In this document: positions 6,306-22,101 of the stretch, one piece after another
Layout of the letters: each line of letters begins with the position of its first letter
Position numbering within the stretch: position 1 is the stretch's first letter
Assembly: GCA_016699615.1 (NCBI GenBank)
Contig: CP064984.1
Location: forward strand, 590,185 to 654,184
Direction of reading: 5' to 3'
DNA length: 64,000 bases
Origin: Sphingobacteriales bacterium
GTDB lineage: Bacteria > Bacteroidota > Bacteroidia > Chitinophagales > JADIYW01
Translations under genes and position numbers: made by a program
Notes under the pieces: model-generated
Database searches by the model: none
Seen by the model: the letters and a program-made list of their open reading frames with translations, nothing else
What the model was told of the DNA's origin: nothing

Positions 6306-7022
6306 TTGCAAAACAATCCAATGCTATCAGAGAAAATCAATATAATTTTCAATCATCTACTAGAACAGAATATTACTAGTCATACATTTGATTTATCAAA
6401 AGACAAACAAATTATTTTAAACTACATAAACAAATCTACATATAAAATTATACTTCATGACACTACTAAGTTTAATTTGATTATAGTTAATGACGCTTTA
6501 AAAACTTATTTAGATTTAGATAGTAATTTTTATCATAATAATAACTTAGTATCATTATATTTTAATATTATTCACATAAATAATTTTACAACATTAGGAG
6601 AAGTATTCAAACATATACATCAAAAATCTACTAATGTCTTGATAATGTATTTAACTATCAGTAAGGATAGAATACATTGGAAAGACATTTATAGTATTTC
6701 AAAAATTATGTTTAATGAAGCACATCAAAAACCAAAATATTTATTAACCATTTTAGAAGAAAACCATAGGCTTCCTAAAAAAAATAAGATTGAATTTAAT
6801 ACCAAAATAAAACATATTTCTTATTCAGAGCAAAAAATACTCAAGTATTTATACCATGATTTAACAACTAAAGAAATCGCAGATTTATTACATGTGTCAG
6901 TATATACGATTAATACACATCGTCAAAATTTAATCAAAAAATTAGAGGTTAAATCAAGTCATGGATTAGTTAGGAAAGCAATTGAATTAGGTTTGACAAC
7001 ACCTATACATCATTTCACATAA
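6306..7022 (+). CDS. LuxR-family transcriptional regulator (C-terminal HTH, N-terminal sensor-like domain)
   Basis: The C-terminus EQKILKYLYHDLTTKEIADLLHVSVYTINTHRQNLIKKLEVKSSHGLVRKAIELGL is a GerE/LuxR HTH. The ORF has a TTG at 6306 and an alternative ATG at 6321. Confidence 0.8.
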   Translation: MQNNPMLSEKINIIFNHLLEQNITSHTFDLSKDKQIILNYINKSTYKIILHDTTKFNLIIVNDALKTYLDLDSNFYHNNNLVSLYFNIIHINNFTTLGEVFKHIHQKSTNVLIMYLTISKDRIHWKDIYSISKIMFNEAHQKPKYLLTILEENHRLPKKNKIEFNTKIKHISYSEQKILKYLYHDLTTKEIADLLHVSVYTINTHRQNLIKKLEVKSSHGLVRKAIELGLTTPIHHFT

Positions 7023-8012: not shown

Positions 8013-8919
8013 ATGAAAAGACTAATTGTATTAAGTACCTTATTGTTTATGATATTATGTAGAGTATCATCACAAGACCTAATAATTAAGAATGATAAAA
8101 CTGAACTTAAATCAAAAATAACAGAAGTATTAAGTTCTGAGATTAAATATAAAAAATGGGAAATGTTAGATGGACCAATTTATACTATAAACAAAACAGA
8201 TATTTTCATGATTATTTATCAAAATGGCACAAGAGAAACATTTGAAACTGCTAAGAAAATATCAAATACAAACCAAGAGATATTAATTACAGAAGGTAAT
8301 ACAACAGCAAGCAAAAATAAAAACAAAGCTCCTGTAGATTTAGCAATCACATTTATGCCCAAAAATAAATTTGTAGCAAAACCAACTAAAGAACAAAGAA
8401 AAGATAAAGAATTTTTAAAAGAATATGCTAAATCAACAGCCGACAGGTCTGTCTCTTTTGGAATAAATTTAATGAATATAGGAAAATCAACAGTTCCAAC
8501 AATTATGTTCTTAACTGATGTTACTATAGCAAAAAACATTGCAATTACTTGGGGTTTTGGTTTTAATTATCATAGAGAAAAATTTTCTGGATATAAGTAT
8601 TCTATGTTTACTTATTGGTTACCAATAGGTGCTGTTTATTACTTCAACCAACTTTAAAAATAAAAAACAAAAAGCATCCTTATATGCAGGAGTACTTTTA
8701 ACGCCATCTATTTCTTCAATAAATATTAAATCAGATGAGACATATAGTTATAGTTCATCATCTTCTTCATCGAGTAAATTCAATTTTAACGGAGGTTTAA
8801 GAGTAGGCGCAAGTTATAATTTCGTAAAGAAATTTGGAGTATATGCTGACATATTAGTTGGCAAAGGAAGACCTGGAATCCTTGTGGGTTTAAAATTATC
8901 AAATTTTAGAGAAAAATAA
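8013..8919 (+). pseudogene. secreted outer-membrane beta-barrel-like protein, interrupted by a +1 frameshift as sequenced
   Basis: ORFs 8013..8657 and 8629..8919 lie in adjacent frames. Removing one T from the T3 run at 8653..8655 joins ...YYFNQL to KNKKQKASLYAGVLL.... The protein has a signal peptide and a C-terminal alternating-hydrophobic barrel-like end (GVYADILVGKGRPGILVGLKLSNF). Confidence 0.5.
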
Positions 8920-8950
8920 AATTCATTATTAACAAATAAAAATAATTATC

Positions 8951-9706
8951 ATGAAAAAATTAACGTATTTAATCATTACAACAATCACAGCTATCTTATT
9001 CATATTTGTAGCTTGCAAAAAAGAAAAAGAAGCAACAATTTCTGCTCAAGAATTAAGTGAAAAGATTACAATCGAAGGTGCTAGTAGAATAAAAGGAAAT
9101 ATACCAGTACCTGATGGTGGAGAATATGGAACAAGTATAGAAATATATACAGATGAAATTATTGTAGAAGAAAATAAAACATCATTTGATGTAACTTTTG
9201 AAGGAATTGAAGATAAGAAAATAGCATATTTTAAAGTTGATGGTTCTGATGATTATTTTGAACTGGAATTGGATGAGTACGGTTCCATTGCTTCAAGAAT
9301 TTCAGATCTCATAAAAGAAGAACAGAAATACATAGGTTTTTGTATTTTTCCTGGTACTCCAGTTCAAAGACAAGTAACTGTGCAATTCTGCAAAATACCA
9401 AAAAATAAAACAAAAGCAGAAGCAAAAGCAAACAAGCAAAACTGGTGTACGCCAAAAAATATAAAATTTCAATGTATTTATAATAAAACTGGAAATTGTA
9501 GCGAAGCAGATATACAAGCAGCTACAAACAAATTGATAAGTTTAACCACTACATTTCAAAACAATCCAACAAATAGTAATTGCAATGCTGTAAAAGCAGC
9601 AGCTATGCAACTATTACAACAAATGAAAAATTGCAATATAGATGATGCTTCACTTACTCAAGCTGCAAATGCATGGAATGGAGTTGATTGCTCTCTACTT
9701 AATTAA
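8951..9706 (+). CDS. lipoprotein, Cys-rich C-terminal domain, unknown function
   Basis: Lipobox FVAC. There are 9 further Cys residues, 7 of them in the last ~100 aa. Confidence 0.6.
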   Translation: MKKLTYLIITTITAILFIFVACKKEKEATISAQELSEKITIEGASRIKGNIPVPDGGEYGTSIEIYTDEIIVEENKTSFDVTFEGIEDKKIAYFKVDGSDDYFELELDEYGSIASRISDLIKEEQKYIGFCIFPGTPVQRQVTVQFCKIPKNKTKAEAKANKQNWCTPKNIKFQCIYNKTGNCSEADIQAATNKLISLTTTFQNNPTNSNCNAVKAAAMQLLQQMKNCNIDDASLTQAANAWNGVDCSLLN

Positions 9707-9724
9707 TTTAATATTTTACAACAA

Positions 9725-9761
9725 TAGTGTATAGCAATCAAATGCTATACACTATTTTTTT
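9725..9761 (+). terminator. Rho-independent terminator
   Basis: Perfect 12-bp stem (tagtgtatagca / tgctatacacta), a 6-nt loop, then T7. Confidence 0.85.
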
Positions 9762-9919
9762 ACTACACAATTAATATGGAGAACGTCGTTGTTATTATTA
9801 CCAAAAACAACAAATATATTAACAAAGACAACAAAGATATAAGTTATTCATTGTGAGATAATTTTATATTCAGAAAATAAATTTTATTCTTTATATTTAG
9901 TAAATAAAACTATTGAATT

Positions 9920-10777
9920 ATGGCAATTAGTGTTAAGAACTATGGAAACTTAAAAAAAACAAAAAGTTGTACAGCAATTTTTGTAGACAACAATAGTATC
10001 ATTGATACCTATGACGAAAAATATAAAACACTTGATACTACTACTTTTGGCAAAAAGTATAATCTACTTATCAATTCATCCTTGTATAATTTACCATCAA
10101 TAAAAAACAGCTTACCTACTTGCTTTCTTATTAGTAATAATAACGGTAAAAAACTTATCATTACAGCAAGACATGTATTAGAATATGGATTAATCAAGAC
10201 TATATCATCTACTTTAGATGAGCTATTTACAAAAATTAGCGTTGTATTTGGTTATGATGATATGCATAATAATCATAGTATAGCAACAAAAGAAATATTT
10301 AAAATTGTAGGTGTATATAATGACACTTACAATGCAAAAACAAATCCGCATGATTTTGTTATTCTTGAAATTAAAGATGAAAATAATTTATTAGATAAAA
10401 AGCAAAGTTCTATTCAAATTGGGAAATTATCGGAAACAGAAATTGAAATCGATAATAATATTTATACTCAAGGATATCCGTATGGAATGCCATTATATAA
10501 AAGCTATGGTAAATTAGAAGCAAAAGAAACTAAAAAAACAGGTTATTACATTTCTAGTTTATCAGCATTTAATGGACATAGTGGTTCTCCTGTATTTAAT
10601 TCCAATCATGAAATAATAGGAATTATTTTCGGCGGTAGTGGAGATTTTGAATATGTAAAAAAGAAAACTAATAAAAAAACAGAAGTATTTAGAAAACTCA
10701 AATATAGAAAGTTCAAATTAGAGAAAGAAAATGGCATATACATATTACCAATAAAAAATATAATTAATTATTTATAA
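9920..10777 (+). CDS. cytoplasmic trypsin-like (S1/chymotrypsin-fold) serine protease
   Basis: The catalytic triad appears in canonical order: LIITARHVLEY (His), PHDFVILEI (Asp), FNGHSGSPVFN (Ser). No signal peptide or TM helix is present. Confidence 0.75.
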   Translation: MAISVKNYGNLKKTKSCTAIFVDNNSIIDTYDEKYKTLDTTTFGKKYNLLINSSLYNLPSIKNSLPTCFLISNNNGKKLIITARHVLEYGLIKTISSTLDELFTKISVVFGYDDMHNNHSIATKEIFKIVGVYNDTYNAKTNPHDFVILEIKDENNLLDKKQSSIQIGKLSETEIEIDNNIYTQGYPYGMPLYKSYGKLEAKETKKTGYYISSLSAFNGHSGSPVFNSNHEIIGIIFGGSGDFEYVKKKTNKKTEVFRKLKYRKFKLEKENGIYILPIKNIINYL

Positions 10778-10793
10778 CTTTAAAACTATTAAT

Positions 10794-11246
10794 ATGGCAA
10801 AGTACAAAAACAAAACAATTTTACCAGCAGGAGTTGAACTTGATGGTATACTAACACTAAATCCTGAAATTCTTTCAGAAGAAGAATTCAAAGTACATCT
10901 CATACAATGGGCAGATAAGCAAAACAGACAAATTAATATTGATGACATAACCATAACAGAGTATGATGAAGGTTGGCAAAATAAATTAGAATCCAACAAA
11001 CACAATTTTTCTATCACTATTCAATCAAATCAAACTGATGGTGTATTAAAATTAGATGAAGGCAATATTGGATTTTCAATACAATACAAACCATTTGTTA
11101 CTGGAGAAGAGTATACTTTATATTTTATTGTAACAATTAAAATTAGTGGAGAAGAACCATTTGATATTGCATTTTCTTCTTTTATTAAAGGTGGCGACAC
11201 AGTTACAGGTCATGGTGATGTAAACATTACAGCAAAAAGTAGTTAA
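10794..11246 (+). CDS. hypothetical 150-aa soluble protein, partner of the trypsin-like protease
   Basis: Starts 16 nt after the protease stop and shares its terminator. It looks beta-rich and has no recognisable motif. Confidence 0.5.
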   Translation: MAKYKNKTILPAGVELDGILTLNPEILSEEEFKVHLIQWADKQNRQINIDDITITEYDEGWQNKLESNKHNFSITIQSNQTDGVLKLDEGNIGFSIQYKPFVTGEEYTLYFIVTIKISGEEPFDIAFSSFIKGGDTVTGHGDVNITAKSS

Positions 11247-11273
11247 TAATTAGAATTGTAATTTCATATTCTG

Positions 11274-11302
11274 AACCGATGATATTTGTCATCGGTTTTT
11301 TT
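11274..11302 (+). terminator. Rho-independent terminator
   Basis: 9-bp stem (aaccgatga / tcatcggtt), 6-nt loop, T-run. Confidence 0.8.
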
Positions 11303-11352
11303 ATATTATAGATAAAAGTTTGTTTGTATCTTAATGATATATTTCAAAACTT

Positions 11353-12743
11353 ATGAAAAAATCTAAACTAATAGACCTGTTAAAATCATTTAATAATTTA
11401 GAAATAAAAGATTTATCTATTTATATTAATCAAGTCTATTATAAAGATGAAGCTCATGCATATAAAATGTTCACTTATTTATATAAGCAATACCCACAAT
11501 TTTTAGAAAAGAATACAGAAAAAACAAAAGTATATAAAAAAATATTCGCAAATAAAACTTATGATGAAAATAAGTTATCTAAAATTATGTCAGAATTAAC
11601 AAAGAATATTGAAGATTTCATAATTACAATTTTCTCAAAGAATAACGAACTATCAAATAAAATACAATTGCTAAATTATTATAATCAACGCAATTTAACA
11701 AAGCACTATTTACAAACAGAAAAAGAGATATTAAAACTACAAACCGAAACTCCGATTAGTATTCAACAAGGATTGCTATCATATCAATTTGAATTTATTA
11801 GACTAATTAATAGAATTAAAACTGATGTGAGAAATCCAAACTATCAAATAATATTTGACAACATTAGTATATTTTGCGAAACTCAAAAATTAAGATGGCA
11901 TAATTTAAACTTTACAAGTATGCTACCAGAATTAAAAACAACAATAATTAATGAAGATACTGTAAGTATATATTATGAATTACATTGCAAGATTAGAACT
12001 CTATTCTTAGAAAACAATGACACTTATCTAAAAGAAATAATTCAATATCTAAAAGAAAATAAAATTAATCTTGATAAGATTGAAAGAGATGAAATATATT
12101 TTTATTAGTAGCATATACCTTAGACAAAGGAAACAAAGGTAATATAATTTATCATCAATACTTGTTTGAGATTTACAAACTAATGGATGAACATAGTATA
12201 TTTCTAAATATATATTTACAAATAGAATTAGCAGCGTACAAAAATTACATCACCTTAGCATTAAAGTTTAATGAAATTAATTTAGCAGAAAAATTCTTAG
12301 AAAAATACAAATCACATTTACAAGATGAACACAAAGAAGAAGTATACAATTTTAATAAAGCACTTATTTTATTTGAAAAAAAAGACTATTCTAGCGTAAT
12401 AGATTTATTATTATTTCTCAACTTTAAAGATGTATTTTATAAGTTAAATCAGCGTAGATTATTAGTTAAAACATACTTTGAAATTAGCCAAACAAACGAA
12501 TCATATTTTAAACTACTAATAGATTATATTGCATCTTTCAAAAAGTATCTTTTATCACTCAAAACACTTCCAGAAGATTATATTATTCTAAATAAAAATT
12601 TTATAAAATTTACTGAAATACTAATATCAAAACAAAAGCTGAATAAAAATGATGCAAAAACATTCTCAGATAAACTCTCAAAAGTAGAAAAAATTTCTGA
12701 ACGAAATTGGTTTAACGAAAAGATTGCACAAAGTCTAAAGTGA
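11353..12743 (+). pseudogene. helical-repeat (TPR-like) protein of unknown function, frameshifted as sequenced
   Basis: ORFs 11353..12108 and 12162..12743. The downstream frame is already open from 12093. Adding one T to the T5 run at 12099..12103 gives ...ERDEIYFLLVAYTLDKGNKGNIIYHQYLFEIYK..., a single ORF of about 460 aa. Confidence 0.5.
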
Positions 12744-18867: not shown

Positions 18868-21800
18868 TTAATGGCTCATCATTACCATAAAACTGGATTT
18901 AAAAATTTGGTCTTTAGTTTGAAAAATCAAATAATAGACTCCAGTATTTAAGAATGGAATATCTATCATTTTATATTCTTCATTTTGTGAAATCTTTAAA
19001 TTTCCTACTTGATATAATTTTCCTGTTACATCTACCACAGCTATATTTCCTTCAAGTAATTCATCAGTATTGGTTTTTATGAGAAGTTGATGCTTTCCTT
19101 CAGGAATTAAATTATCAATGATAGTGAATTGTTGTTGTGTATTGAAATTATTTTTAATTGGTGTATTCAATACATTTACCGAATCTGTATAAGTATACAG
19201 AATTTTATTATTTGGAAGAGTATGTTTTATTCTATAATAATTCCATCCGATATCTGGCAAATTATCAGTTATTTCATATTGTAAAGTATCAAACAAGCCG
19301 AATTCTGGAACAATAGTCATCATTGTTTCAAATAGATGATTTTGTTCTGTATGTTTTTCGACATGCATACTTTCTGTTTCATATTCATGAATATTTTTCC
19401 AAGTTAGATATACCACACCATCACTTAAAGTTGCATGAAAATCTATAATACTATCCATAATGTAGTATAAAGTATCAATATTAGAATATTTAATTTGTCC
19501 GTTTGGCAATTGCATCACAATTCTATAAATTGATGAATCTTTAATTGGAAAAAAATCTTTATAGTTATAATTCTCAGAAACACTATTATTGGCTAGAACT
19601 TCCGTTAAAGAATCTAATGTTTCATATATTTTTGCTTTCTGAACAATATATTTTTGTACGTTTTTTTGTTGTGCCAACCAATCTACATTTATAGTTTTAT
19701 TTCCTATCTCAACATTAAAATATAATATAGAATCAGTACAATTCAATAAATATATCGAATCAACACCAACTAAAAAAATTGAATCTGAAAAAGTTATCGC
19801 TTCTAATTTATAATAGTTCTTTCTTACTTGTGAGTTATTATCGTTATATTGATATTGGTCAATTACATTTAGATTATTTTTTGCTGAAATTGTTTTCAAC
19901 AGTGAAAAATTTGAAGTATCATTACTAGATTTGTATATATTATATTTTTTTATGTTTATTTCATTTTTTACTTTCCATGTTAGTATAGCATCACAATAAT
20001 TAGCATCTACATTGAAATTAAAGATTGAATCTTTTGGAAATATATTTGATGTTGTTTTATCCTTATCTACCCAAATTGGACTACTCCATGCCCAAACTTC
20101 TATATTATTAACCTTATTTTTTTGTTTAGCTCTAATGTAGTACATGGAAGTATCTGAATATGTAGAATCCATAAATGAAAAATCAATTACTCTATTATTT
20201 GTTGCTTGAGGTTGTATTCTTTTTATAACATTAAATTTAGGCACACCATTGATATATTGGTTGTTTGTAAAGTCCCATTTAACAACATCTACATATTCTA
20301 TTTCATTTGTACCAGCAACAAAAATTTCTAAGACAGGTTTTAAGTATTGATTAAGTAAAAGCTCATCTCCCATCATTTTGTTATAGATATTAAACTTTAA
20401 TACTATTCTTTCGCCTGTTGTTGCGTATGCATTTCTATTATATAAATGCTGAAATAAATTATTTCTGTTTAAACTATCAGCAAATATTGCTGCACCACCT
20501 GCTTGGTCTCTGAATGCACTTCTAGCAATATGTCCATCACAACTACCAATAATGCCAACTCTTTCTCTTTTAGACCATGCGTCTTGAATAAATGAACCTT
20601 TTATACCACATGCATTAGGATTATTGCTTTTATAAGATAGCGGATGATTATCATCATAGTATTCGCTTAAACCATGTGAACTATATATTTCATATATTCT
20701 TCTATATTTTTTATTATAATATTGATTCCCAAACTGCATAGGTACAGTACATTGAGACAAACATGCAAAACATTTTCCTGTATGGTGTGGTATTGTTAAT
20801 ACTTGTAAGCTTGTATCAACTGTATCAGCAGATGCATAAATCTTTAGCACATTATTATACTCAATTTTATTCCCCCATCTTGGAATCTTCCATATATCTT
20901 CGTCCTTAAAATTAAAAATCATATTGTTGTGTTGCGATGGTGTTGGCATACTATTCTCGTATCCAACAAATGTTATATACCTATTTGGTTGATGGTATTC
21001 TAGAGCTCTTAATTTTATTTTATACCATTCTTGGTCATTTATACCATAATAATCAGTACCACCACCATCTATATGGTCTGTAATACTAAAAAAATCTAAG
21101 CCTTCTGAATTTCTTGTATAGTCATAAGCACCTGAACCTCTTCCATCTCTACTAAATTCTGTATGCGTATGAAAATCTCCCCAATAAATTTTTATACTAT
21201 CATCAGATACATGTATTGGATTGGAAGTATATACTTTATTACCAAACTGGCATGAACATGTATATACACCATCTCTTGTAAATTTTACATACAAATCCTT
21301 AACTCCTTTATCATCATTAGAAATAGATATATAATTATCTACAATAGCATATGGAGTATTACATGATACTTGAATTATTCCAGTTTTTGTTGGAGTTGTA
21401 TTATAAAACTGGTCTGTTAACATAATTTTTAACAATGCTGATTCATTTGCTTTCGCAGTTGATTGTAATACTAAATTTATTTTATGACCAAAATTTTCTT
21501 CTTTTATATGTAGTATTGGTCTATCTCTAATAATTTTAAAATTAGTGTTTCCAAAATTACACATCGTAGCAAAAAAGTCTGTTGTTTTAGAAAGACCTAC
21601 ATTTATATATGATTGTGCTAATCCTGCACCATGCACAATTTGTAGTGTATCCCCAATTTTAAATGTATCAATCAATTTTATGGTTGCAATCAATCCAAAT
21701 GCATCTTTGTCTACCAAATATTGTTGAAGCGTATAACCAATAAATTCATCTCTTGACGGTTGTATATTATTTATAGTTTGTTGTTTTGTAGTATTAATTA

Positions 21801-22101
21801 CTGCTTTAGTGTACCCAGCAGTTACTGCAAAAAGGGCAGGTATAGTTAATGGCTTTCCATCCCATACTGCTGAAATAAATTGTTTTGGTAAAATAATTTT
21901 AAACAATGTATTGGGTAAGATATTTGTCGTGTCATTTACAATATTAAATGTAATCTTTTGTCTTGTATTTACCGTTACAGTATCTGGATTTACAAATGTT
22001 CTAAATGCATTTGTATAACCATCTATTGTTTGTGCAGATAATGAGTCACTAGCAAACAAGCCAACAAGTATATAAGCTATTAAAAAGTAAAAAGATTTCA
22101 T
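18868..22101 (-). CDS. large secreted PHP/DUF3604-like metallohydrolase with three Fn3-like repeats and a T9SS C-terminal sorting domain
   Basis: Signal peptide. Metal-binding motifs YWGDFHTHTEFSRDG, FFSITDH and IPHHTG...SSHG...SCDGH. Three ~100-aa repeats follow, and the C-terminal ~80 aa (GVYYLIFQT...) is typical of T9SS CTDs. Confidence 0.65.
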   Translation of the reverse strand: MKSFYFLIAYILVGLFASDSLSAQTIDGYTNAFRTFVNPDTVTVNTRQKITFNIVNDTTNILPNTLFKIILPKQFISAVWDGKPLTIPALFAVTAGYTKAVINTTKQQTINNIQPSRDEFIGYTLQQYLVDKDAFGLIATIKLIDTFKIGDTLQIVHGAGLAQSYINVGLSKTTDFFATMCNFGNTNFKIIRDRPILHIKEENFGHKINLVLQSTAKANESALLKIMLTDQFYNTTPTKTGIIQVSCNTPYAIVDNYISISNDDKGVKDLYVKFTRDGVYTCSCQFGNKVYTSNPIHVSDDSIKIYWGDFHTHTEFSRDGRGSGAYDYTRNSEGLDFFSITDHIDGGGTDYYGINDQEWYKIKLRALEYHQPNRYITFVGYENSMPTPSQHNNMIFNFKDEDIWKIPRWGNKIEYNNVLKIYASADTVDTSLQVLTIPHHTGKCFACLSQCTVPMQFGNQYYNKKYRRIYEIYSSHGLSEYYDDNHPLSYKSNNPNACGIKGSFIQDAWSKRERVGIIGSCDGHIARSAFRDQAGGAAIFADSLNRNNLFQHLYNRNAYATTGERIVLKFNIYNKMMGDELLLNQYLKPVLEIFVAGTNEIEYVDVVKWDFTNNQYINGVPKFNVIKRIQPQATNNRVIDFSFMDSTYSDTSMYYIRAKQKNKVNNIEVWAWSSPIWVDKDKTTSNIFPKDSIFNFNVDANYCDAILTWKVKNEINIKKYNIYKSSNDTSNFSLLKTISAKNNLNVIDQYQYNDNNSQVRKNYYKLEAITFSDSIFLVGVDSIYLLNCTDSILYFNVEIGNKTINVDWLAQQKNVQKYIVQKAKIYETLDSLTEVLANNSVSENYNYKDFFPIKDSSIYRIVMQLPNGQIKYSNIDTLYYIMDSIIDFHATLSDGVVYLTWKNIHEYETESMHVEKHTEQNHLFETMMTIVPEFGLFDTLQYEITDNLPDIGWNYYRIKHTLPNNKILYTYTDSVNVLNTPIKNNFNTQQQFTIIDNLIPEGKHQLLIKTNTDELLEGNIAVVDVTGKLYQVGNLKISQNEEYKMIDIPFLNTGVYYLIFQTKDQIFKSSFMVMMSH

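Follow-up and report, generated by a model that had tools for sequence, protein, structure and literature searches.

The analyzed stretch of DNA (64,000 nucleotides; hereafter, the window) belongs to the genome of Sphingobacteriales bacterium, an uncultured Bacteroidota of the wastewater type (GenBank assembly GCA_016699615.1, contig CP064984.1, positions 590,185–654,184). The window contains a two-gene unit that encodes a serine protease of the S1 (PA-clan) type without a signal peptide and a small acidic protein with a predicted beta-sandwich fold (hereafter, the partner), and the unit lies between two intrinsic terminators (Table 1). The contigs encoding all protease homologues and all distant homologues of the partner were retrieved, and 11 loci were informative, namely the window, L001, L002, L005, L008, L009, L011, L014, L016 (with the C-terminus of the protease only), L017 and L018; the contigs of L013 and L021 stop at a gene boundary and were uninformative for gene order. 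Comparison of these loci showed that the pair is a replaceable unit, which is swapped as a cassette between close relatives.

Table 1. Positions of the features at the protease–partner locus and of the cassette boundaries in related contigs.
Feature	Position	Strand	Remarks
Signal-less S1 (PA-clan) serine protease, V8/Spl-like, 285 aa	9920–10777	+	Catalytic triad H85, D145, S221
Acidic orphan beta-sandwich partner, 150 aa	10794–11246	+	16 nt after the protease gene
Upstream intrinsic terminator	9723–9763	+	Hairpin 9723–9756, 14-bp stem, then T-run
Downstream intrinsic terminator	11273–11305	+	Hairpin 11273–11298, 11-bp stem, then T-run; closes the bicistron
Upstream open reading frame (uORF), 26 codons	9776–9856	+	Holds both 13-mer copies; inside the 158-nt leader
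Candidate -7 promoter box TATATTTA	9892–9899	+	About 21 nt before the ATG; putative
Replacement boundaries	L005:7903–10040 versus L018:1538–5596; L013:2229–3947		82–87% DNA identity ends after the 160-aa lipoprotein gene and returns at the GMC oxidoreductase gene
LuxR/GerE-type regulator	6306–7022	+	Heads the cluster; GerE, E = 7.8e-13; family F4 in the window, L005, L008, L009 and L011
All-helical repeat protein of about 460 aa, family F2, no signal peptide	11353–12743	+	Family defined by all-versus-all blastp; split by a frameshift near 12100

The protease belongs to peptidase family S1, of which it is a new and divergent member without a signal peptide. Its sequence contains the motifs TARHV, HDFVILEI and GHSGSP and matched the Pfam family Trypsin_2 (PF13365) with an E-value of 1.8e-12 (48.6 bits against a cut-off of 27.6 bits); the divergent proteases of L017 and L018 also matched this family. 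Residues H85, D145 and S221 do not vary across the family and are retained in these two relatives with 31–38% identity, which confirms the intact His/Asp/Ser triad reported in the preliminary description of the window, and the sequence points to a catalytically competent, active-looking S1 enzyme. A search of the PDB with the profile of the protease family revealed staphylococcal glutamyl endopeptidases, Spl proteases and exfoliative toxins (1.8e-11), as well as a weaker match to FAM111A. Modeling using AlphaFold 2 (AF2) led to a single-domain double beta-barrel of the chymotrypsin fold with a predicted local distance difference test (pLDDT) score of 80.7. When this model was compared with the PDB using Foldseek, Esp, V8 and SplA were found at an E-value of about 5e-10 with a template modeling (TM) score of about 0.67 on the target, and every top match among the 642 with E ≤ 1e-3 was an S1 protease. 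The PADLOC search gave domain-level matches only (RT-Protease_XI, 2.2e-9, over the protease domain).

According to our reading of the alignment, the position of the His residue in the GIHWGG motif of V8 is occupied by I, L, V or M (GIIFGG and its variants); in P0012 and L018, it is just the residue after this position that is His. Since this His is replaced, the protease is not called Glu-specific. An obligatory disulfide bond between C17 and C68 was considered and rejected, because one or the other of these residues is lost in L017 and L018. In the AF2 model, the enzyme carries an N-terminal extension of about 30 residues and a Lys-rich C-terminal hairpin. At residues 240–265, the Lys-rich insertion EYVKKKTNKKTEVFRKLKYRKFKLEKE is modeled as a beta-hairpin following the region of the catalytic Ser. 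Both the length and the sequence of this insertion vary between homologues, and it could be an element for binding of the partner or of nucleic acids.

No signal peptide or transmembrane segment was found in either protein of the window. The first start codon after the preceding stop is located at position 9920, so a hidden N-terminal extension of the protease is not possible. All protease homologues start at an aligned Met, and a hydrophobic N-terminus was found in none of nine members of the family. The sole 19-residue segment over the usual transmembrane cut-off belongs to the partial L017 protease and has a value of 1.75, and a signal-like N-terminus was observed only in the most remote match, P0014 (24% identity, E = 1.2e-5). 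A hidden export signal, which would have made the enzyme an ordinary secreted peptidase, was therefore rejected for the core family, as the reading frame cannot be extended upstream, the N-termini align and no hydrophobic segment is present. These characteristics agree with the earlier proposal of a protease without a signal peptide, and both the protease and its partner are predicted from their sequences to be cytoplasmic.

The partner is identical to the hypothetical protein IPK18_02965 of a metagenome-assembled genome (MAG) of 'Sphingobacteriales bacterium'. Its AF2 model, built on an alignment of 12 sequences, is an all-beta structure of eight strands (pLDDT 86.6, predicted TM score 0.82), in which a low-confidence Gly-rich loop (residues 134–137) is followed by the final strand (residues 139–145). 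No Pfam, NCBIfam or PADLOC match was found for the window protein, and none of the 16 members of the family matched any recurrent Pfam family at E ≤ 1. Profile searches against the PDB returned noise only (PorV, 0.1; FAM96A, 0.07). Foldseek comparison with the PDB and with the BFVD viral models revealed nothing below an E-value of 0.01 (all PDB matches had E ≥ 0.012); the matches were generic Ig-like sandwiches with TM scores of 0.3–0.6, of which DUF4426 (3uc2) was the best (TM 0.47–0.61). Thus, the partner was correctly described before as a soluble, beta-rich protein of no recognizable family, no match to a housekeeping family appeared in any of these searches, and the models allow us to regard it confidently as an orphan beta-sandwich that belongs to no described family. 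Protease-activated pore formers had been named before as an example of such pairs, but the PDB search using Foldseek revealed no gasdermin or other pore-forming fold for the partner.

Nine residues are invariant among the 16 partners, whose identity is about 23%, namely K33, W39, D41, R45, P100, F123, G134, D142 and N144. The most recognizable common feature at this level of identity is the C-terminal motif GG-x-P-x3-GD[AV]N. The 5–10 residues beyond N144 are lineage-specific: many homologues have a free Gly-rich C-terminus after D-x-N and end with ...GDANKPAGGG(G) (as in P0018, P0020, P0021, P0023, P0024 and P0027), and other lineages end with ITAKSS, KPALPNYDDYI or GSIGKP. A more exotic idea is that the invariant K33, D41/D142 and N144 make up an intramolecular Lys-Asn isopeptide bond or a site of Asn-driven self-cleavage.

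The conserved tail suggests, by analogy, an unlikely but serious alternative to inhibition of the protease by the partner, namely that the partner is the substrate. It would then be a pro-protein whose C-terminal tail, following the Gly linker and lying around D142-x-N144, is cleaved in order to activate or release something. Invariance of the G...D-x-N tail in so divergent a family, the flexible linker directly before it and the variable last residues would all be consistent with this; however, the model shows residues 139–145 with good confidence as a strand that is part of the sandwich itself. The family nearest to the protease is V8, whose members cleave at Glu/Asp, but the Glu-binding His of V8 is replaced in our reading of the alignment. 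Activation of an adjacent gated pro-enzyme by a cytoplasmic trypsin-like protease is established (PMC12799240; bioRxiv 10.1101/2025.09.03.673762), yet a partner of 150 aa without an enzymatic or pore-forming fold match fits poorly with such a role, and no sensor domain is fused to the protease or reliably adjacent to it, unlike in Hachiman, Avs and Lamassu.

The protease and partner genes are adjacent at 11 of the 11 informative loci, always with the protease gene first and both genes on one strand, and no counter-example was found; the conservation of the pair as neighbors in other genomes, on which the first proposal depended, is therefore clear. The distance between the genes varies from -4 to +16 nt and equals 16 nt in the window. 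The linkage persists down to about 31–38% identity of the proteases and 23–29% identity of the partners. Pairwise identities of the two proteins are correlated (r = 0.83, 45 locus pairs), with faster divergence of the partner (mean identity of 40% versus 47% for the protease). The two proteins also carry opposite charges. The isoelectric point (pI) of the window protease is 9.2 with a net charge of +10, and the proteases of the family are basic in general (pI 8.4–9.4, net +3 to +13). The corresponding values for the window partner are 4.65 and -10, and the partners are acidic in nine of ten pairs (pI 4.5–5.9, net -1 to -11).

The replacement of the pair was observed directly in related contigs. 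The DNA of L005 and L018 is 82% identical as far as the end of the small lipoprotein gene that precedes the cassette, and this identity resumes at the first base of the GMC gene; a BLASTN comparison of the two contigs revealed nothing between these two points. In L005, this interval encodes the protease, the partner and a protein of 220 aa; in L018, it encodes a secreted C1 peptidase (with a Fib_succ_major domain), the protease and the partner. L013 and L018 originate from the same metagenome; their DNA is 87% identical up to the boundary and an upstream protein is 96% identical, with proteases that are 36% identical. Across near-identical flanks (82–87% DNA identity), the proteases are thus just 36–37% identical. 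The GMC oxidoreductase retains 71–86% identity where the proteases have 37–53% and the partners 29–49%. The boundaries of the cassette are sharp and recombination-like.

The family is tiny and patchy, and its members come solely from uncultured Bacteroidota in samples of engineered systems or the environment. Exhaustive searches gave about 16 sequence clusters for the partner. A word-indexed search of 5.8 billion clusters found 12 members, and an exhaustive hidden Markov model (HMM) search of 1.84 billion representatives found 11 proteins, including four new distant members (142–182 aa). Two long repeat proteins among these 11 matches were aligned over 30–45 residues and were treated as motif-level noise. 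Among the GTDB representatives, relatives were found in one MAG only, and scans of the JGI metagenomes revealed no further loci. The viral contigs of IMG/VR contained no relatives of the pair, and a phage origin was rejected for this reason.

The two strong terminators that had been reported on both sides of the unit were located by a scan of positions 8500–12500, which revealed three sites versus 0.6 ± 0.8 in shuffled sequences. The upstream hairpin has a folding energy of -18.2 kcal/mol (z = -8.3) and the downstream one of -14.2 kcal/mol (z = -5.1), and none of 200 shuffles was equally stable in either case. The upstream terminator belongs to the preceding lipoprotein gene (8951–9706) and shields the pair from upstream transcription in the window genome. 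The bracketing of the pair by terminators holds for the window but only in part for the family: a strict perfect-stem scan found a terminator directly 3' of the partner at five of nine loci (the window, L002, L008, L009 and L018), and no counterpart of the upstream terminator was found before the pair at nine other loci. In the window and at the loci of the close family, the strict scan flagged no terminator separating the protease gene from the partner gene; short stems were flagged inside the divergent pairs of L014 and L018.

The 158-nt leader contains the uORF and the repeat noted previously, with exact copies of the 13-mer at 9807–9819 and 9828–9840; the 13-mer pattern occurs nine times in the window versus 3.7 expected. 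It is very improbable that these elements control the operon by attenuation or uORF-coupled regulation. Their presence within the leader is the point in favor of such control, but neither the uORF nor the repeat is conserved in any homologous leader. No related uORF was found in seven homologous leaders, and the leaders of eight loci could not be aligned, except for a TATATTT block 20–30 nt before the start codon. A reading frame of at least 26 codons arises in 5.3% of leader shuffles. The leader is no more structured than the background (z = -0.45), and the Rfam search gave nothing at the gathering score, the sub-threshold matches being terminator hairpins only. The uORF and the 13-mer repeat look like chance features, and the ideas of regulation by the uORF, the repeat or a riboswitch were dropped on these grounds. 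The consensus of the -7 promoter element in Bacteroidota is TAnnTTTG, and the block TATATTTA, the sole leader block that recurs at the same distance in the leader alignment with L002, L005 and L009, is a candidate -7 box of this kind. This promoter-like block falls downstream of the uORF, which probably lies upstream of the promoter.

All-versus-all blastp comparison placed the pair in a conserved, lineage-specific cluster that consists of the LuxR/GerE regulator, a lipoprotein of about 278 aa, variable exported proteins, the pair itself and the helical protein F2. The best PDB match of the regulator was 3clo, via the helix-turn-helix (HTH) domain only. Every gene between the regulator and the protease gene encodes a signal peptide or a lipobox, and the variable exported set includes Sel1-repeat proteins of about 525 aa. 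The F2 protein was found in the cluster at every locus with a sufficient flank. Its gene is located upstream of the regulator gene in divergent orientation or else immediately follows the partner gene, and its strand varies between genomes. It has no Pfam match and a weak PPR-like match in the PDB (3.7e-4).

One frameshift and one probable frameshift were observed in the cluster of the window. The F2 gene is split into open reading frames (ORFs) of 251 and 193 aa, where one T is lost in a T-run (tatttttatt) at 12100–12104; in tblastn, the intact orthologue of L001 matched the two halves in two frames with identities of 66% and 73%, and the frameshift is either a homopolymer error of the assembly or the sign of a recent pseudogene. 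In addition, the ORFs 8013–8657 (214 aa, with a signal peptide) and 8629–8919 (96 aa, with a ...GLKLSNF end like that of outer membrane proteins) overlap and join at an A-rich homopolymer (8655–8672). The region 8013–8919 is probably one frameshifted gene of an outer membrane protein of about 300 aa; no homologue of its product was found in the related loci.

Outside the cluster, the genes are of the housekeeping type and encode KdsB, NfeD, a LysM protein, the GMC oxidoreductase, an aldehyde dehydrogenase, an aminotransferase and an M61 peptidase. The GMC oxidoreductase and aldehyde dehydrogenase genes recur as neighbors of the cluster in several genomes. The DNA of the window is AT-rich (21–35% GC) and the GC content of the pair is only slightly under the local average. 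The location in an accessory-looking block, as first proposed, is therefore unsupported, and a defense-island or mobile-element context was rejected on the basis of the PADLOC search, the neighbor annotation and the composition.

Such surroundings bring in another explanation, according to which the protease is an ordinary lineage-specific regulatory enzyme of the cytoplasm with an adaptor or specificity subunit, serves a LuxR-controlled cell-envelope cluster and has no role in conflict, its divergence reflecting relaxed constraint in a variable chromosomal region. We consider this explanation rather unlikely. The pair does sit in a conserved cluster with the regulator, the exported lipoproteins and Sel1 proteins, and the helical protein, next to the same chromosomal neighbors in several genomes; F2 and the LuxR regulator diverge at rates like that of the pair; neither defense nor mobile genes were found nearby, and the composition is unremarkable. 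On the other hand, deeply divergent replacement between near-identical flanks is unexpected for a housekeeping module, the family is extremely rare and patchy, and in the window the terminators of the pair set its transcription apart from that of the cluster.

A protein of 1077 aa encoded on the opposite strand of the window (18868–22101) showed a weak match to Por_Secre_tail (E = 7.7e-4, under the gathering score) together with DUF3604. This match indicates that the organism may use the type IX secretion system (T9SS); no T9SS C-terminal domain was found in the protease or the partner.

Possible type IX secretion bears on an improbable explanation in which the protease is an antibacterial or predatory effector exported by an unrecognized route (as cargo of a type VI secretion system (T6SS), in outer membrane vesicles or by lysis) and the partner is the cytoplasmic immunity protein of the producer. 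The order of the genes, with a putative effector first and a small acidic immunity-like gene tightly coupled to it, would suit this scheme. So would the cassette-like polymorphism of the locus, the variable exported proteins of the cassette (such as the C1 peptidase of L018) and the weakly matched T9SS C-terminal sorting domain of at least one protein of the organism. Nevertheless, the protease is approximately a bare catalytic domain, in which no signal peptide and no T9SS, T6SS or polymorphic-toxin delivery domain was seen, and secretion-system genes were not seen among the annotated neighbors in the window and the related loci.

Taken together, the strict adjacency, the co-divergence, the opposite charges, the invariant triad, the absence of export signals, the conserved tail and the cassette replacement lead us to favor, tentatively and at somewhat less than an even chance, the reading in which the partner restrains the cytoplasmic protease as an inhibitor, immunity protein or antitoxin and the pair diversifies like a toxin/immunity module. 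The two genes would form one translationally coupled operon, and their two cytoplasmic products would act as a unit. The acidic partner would bind the basic protease stoichiometrically and hold it inactive, and the C-terminal Gly linker with the invariant G-D-x-N strand may be offered to the active-site cleft of the enzyme. In such a small module for conflict or self-protection, the protease would serve as the effector and could be toxic. We infer that the two proteins bind each other physically, that the partner inhibits the protease and does not activate it, that the C-terminal tail is involved, and any role in conflict. The tail motif (G134, D142 and N144) is the best-conserved feature of the partner and follows the low-confidence Gly-rich linker.

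A number of observations weigh against restraint of the protease by the partner. Interfaces of immunity proteins and inhibitors involved in arms races are usually variable, and the invariant tail motif suits a substrate at least equally well. The partner fold resembles no solved protease inhibitor in the PDB search using Foldseek, and the partner lacks the DNA-binding domain of classical type II antitoxins, being a pure beta-sandwich without an HTH, ribbon-helix-helix or AbrB-type Pfam match. The charge rule has an exception in the L017 pair, whose partner is basic. The F2 protein and the LuxR regulator diverge approximately as fast as the pair across more distant genomes, so that fast divergence is partly a property of the whole cluster. 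The context speaks in the same direction: no known defense gene was found within about 10 kb (the search with PADLOC-DB v2 gave HTH-level matches of the LuxR regulator only), no mobile-element genes were found near the pair and no relatives on IMG/VR viral contigs, and no secretion-system genes were present among the annotated neighbors in the window or the related loci. Thus, the conflict-system reading of the preliminary description retains the support of the replaceable cassette, but its expected proximity to known defense genes was not observed, and neither mobile-element nor viral genes surround the pair.

A broader proposal, which we put forward as possible but doubtful, is that the pair represents an undescribed minimal two-gene conflict cassette, in which a stand-alone S1 protease is gated by, or acts on, a new beta-sandwich family via the G...D-x-N strand. 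Closely related, probably filamentous Chitinophagales/Sphingobacteriales would exchange deeply divergent 'allelic' versions of the cassette at one fixed site of the chromosome, and the cassette would correspond to the trypsin-MBL and gasdermin modules of protease activation but without a sensor. The locus also shows clearly how a cassette is replaced in nature between near-identical flanks. A partner that acts as an inhibitor would be a new class of S1-protease inhibitor, and the product of a partner that acts as a substrate would be a new effector. The reach of these conclusions is limited to about 16 clusters from uncultured Bacteroidota, and the function is inferred.

The closest known enzymes are the staphylococcal S1B proteases (GluV8, Esp, SplA-F and exfoliative toxins), which gave the top sequence and structure matches and share the triad and the GxSGSPVF motif. 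Unlike the enzyme described here, they are secreted with a signal peptide and need a processed N-terminus. The present enzyme differs from them by its N-terminal extension of about 30 residues, its Lys-rich C-terminal hairpin and its obligatory downstream partner. The Glu-binding His of the V8-like glutamyl endopeptidases (GIHWGG) is absent here according to our alignment reading.

Operons in which a protease is encoded together with its cytoplasmic inhibitor include those of staphopain and staphostatin (sspBC/scpAB), SpeB and Spi, and the Bacillus ISP and BsuPI. In the staphopain–staphostatin operons, the protease gene comes first and the gene of a small, signal-less, all-beta partner comes second, as here; the second protein is specific for its neighbor, and its proposed role is to protect the cytoplasm of the producer. 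However, the proteases of such operons are of the cysteine or subtilisin type and are mostly exported, and no sequence or Foldseek similarity was found between the partner and any solved inhibitor.

In the trypsin-MBL modules of Hachiman, AVAST, Lamassu and DRT, an upstream MBL-fold pro-nuclease is combined with a sensor-fused protease (PMC12799240; bioRxiv 10.1101/2025.09.03.673762). The common features are the co-evolution of a cytoplasmic trypsin-like protease with a partner that is encoded by its own gene next to it, as well as the exchange of the module between contexts. In contrast to these modules, the partner is here a downstream beta-sandwich of 150 aa without a Pfam MBL match, the protease stands alone, and no sensor or defense gene was found.

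Trypco1 and Trypco2 are trypsin-co-occurring domains of the vWA-MoxR-VMAP ternary conflict systems (Kaur et al. 2020, PMC7159879), and enrichment of these systems was described for bacteria that are multicellular or filamentous. Like the Trypco-trypsin pairs, the pair described here combines a trypsin-like peptidase with an obligatory small neighbor of unknown function. Pfam contains models for Trypco1 and Trypco2; the 16 partners match neither these nor any recurrent Pfam family at E ≤ 1, and genes of the vWA-MoxR-VMAP type are not conserved at the 10 loci compared. In L011, which is a Chitinophagales MAG, a vWA-like protein (Rv0959_3rd/VWA_2) and a faint AAA match (Mg_chelatase/AAA_5) were observed 3–6 kb downstream of the pair (L011:14538–17652), with unrelated genes in between. 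These neighbors are conserved at no other locus; by analogy, they recall the vWA-MoxR conflict systems that use trypsin-like peptidases.

The bacterial gasdermin systems resemble the pair in that a cytoplasmic protease is encoded beside a protein with a short, conserved and possibly removable C-terminal segment. Nevertheless, the partner is a half-sized beta-sandwich that had no gasdermin match in the PDB and has no hydrophobic or transmembrane features. The pair thus fails the membership tests of the Trypco-VMAP, trypsin-MBL, gasdermin and classical type II toxin-antitoxin systems and of all PADLOC systems. A general logic that is becoming apparent in bacterial immunity and antagonism is the combination of a protease and its partner in one module; examples are the gasdermins, the trypsin-MBL modules and the caspase-nuclease systems. 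By analogy, the pair would work most like a module of a protease with a dedicated partner, and it would add to these systems a minimal, sensor-less version in which both the family and the fold of the partner are new.

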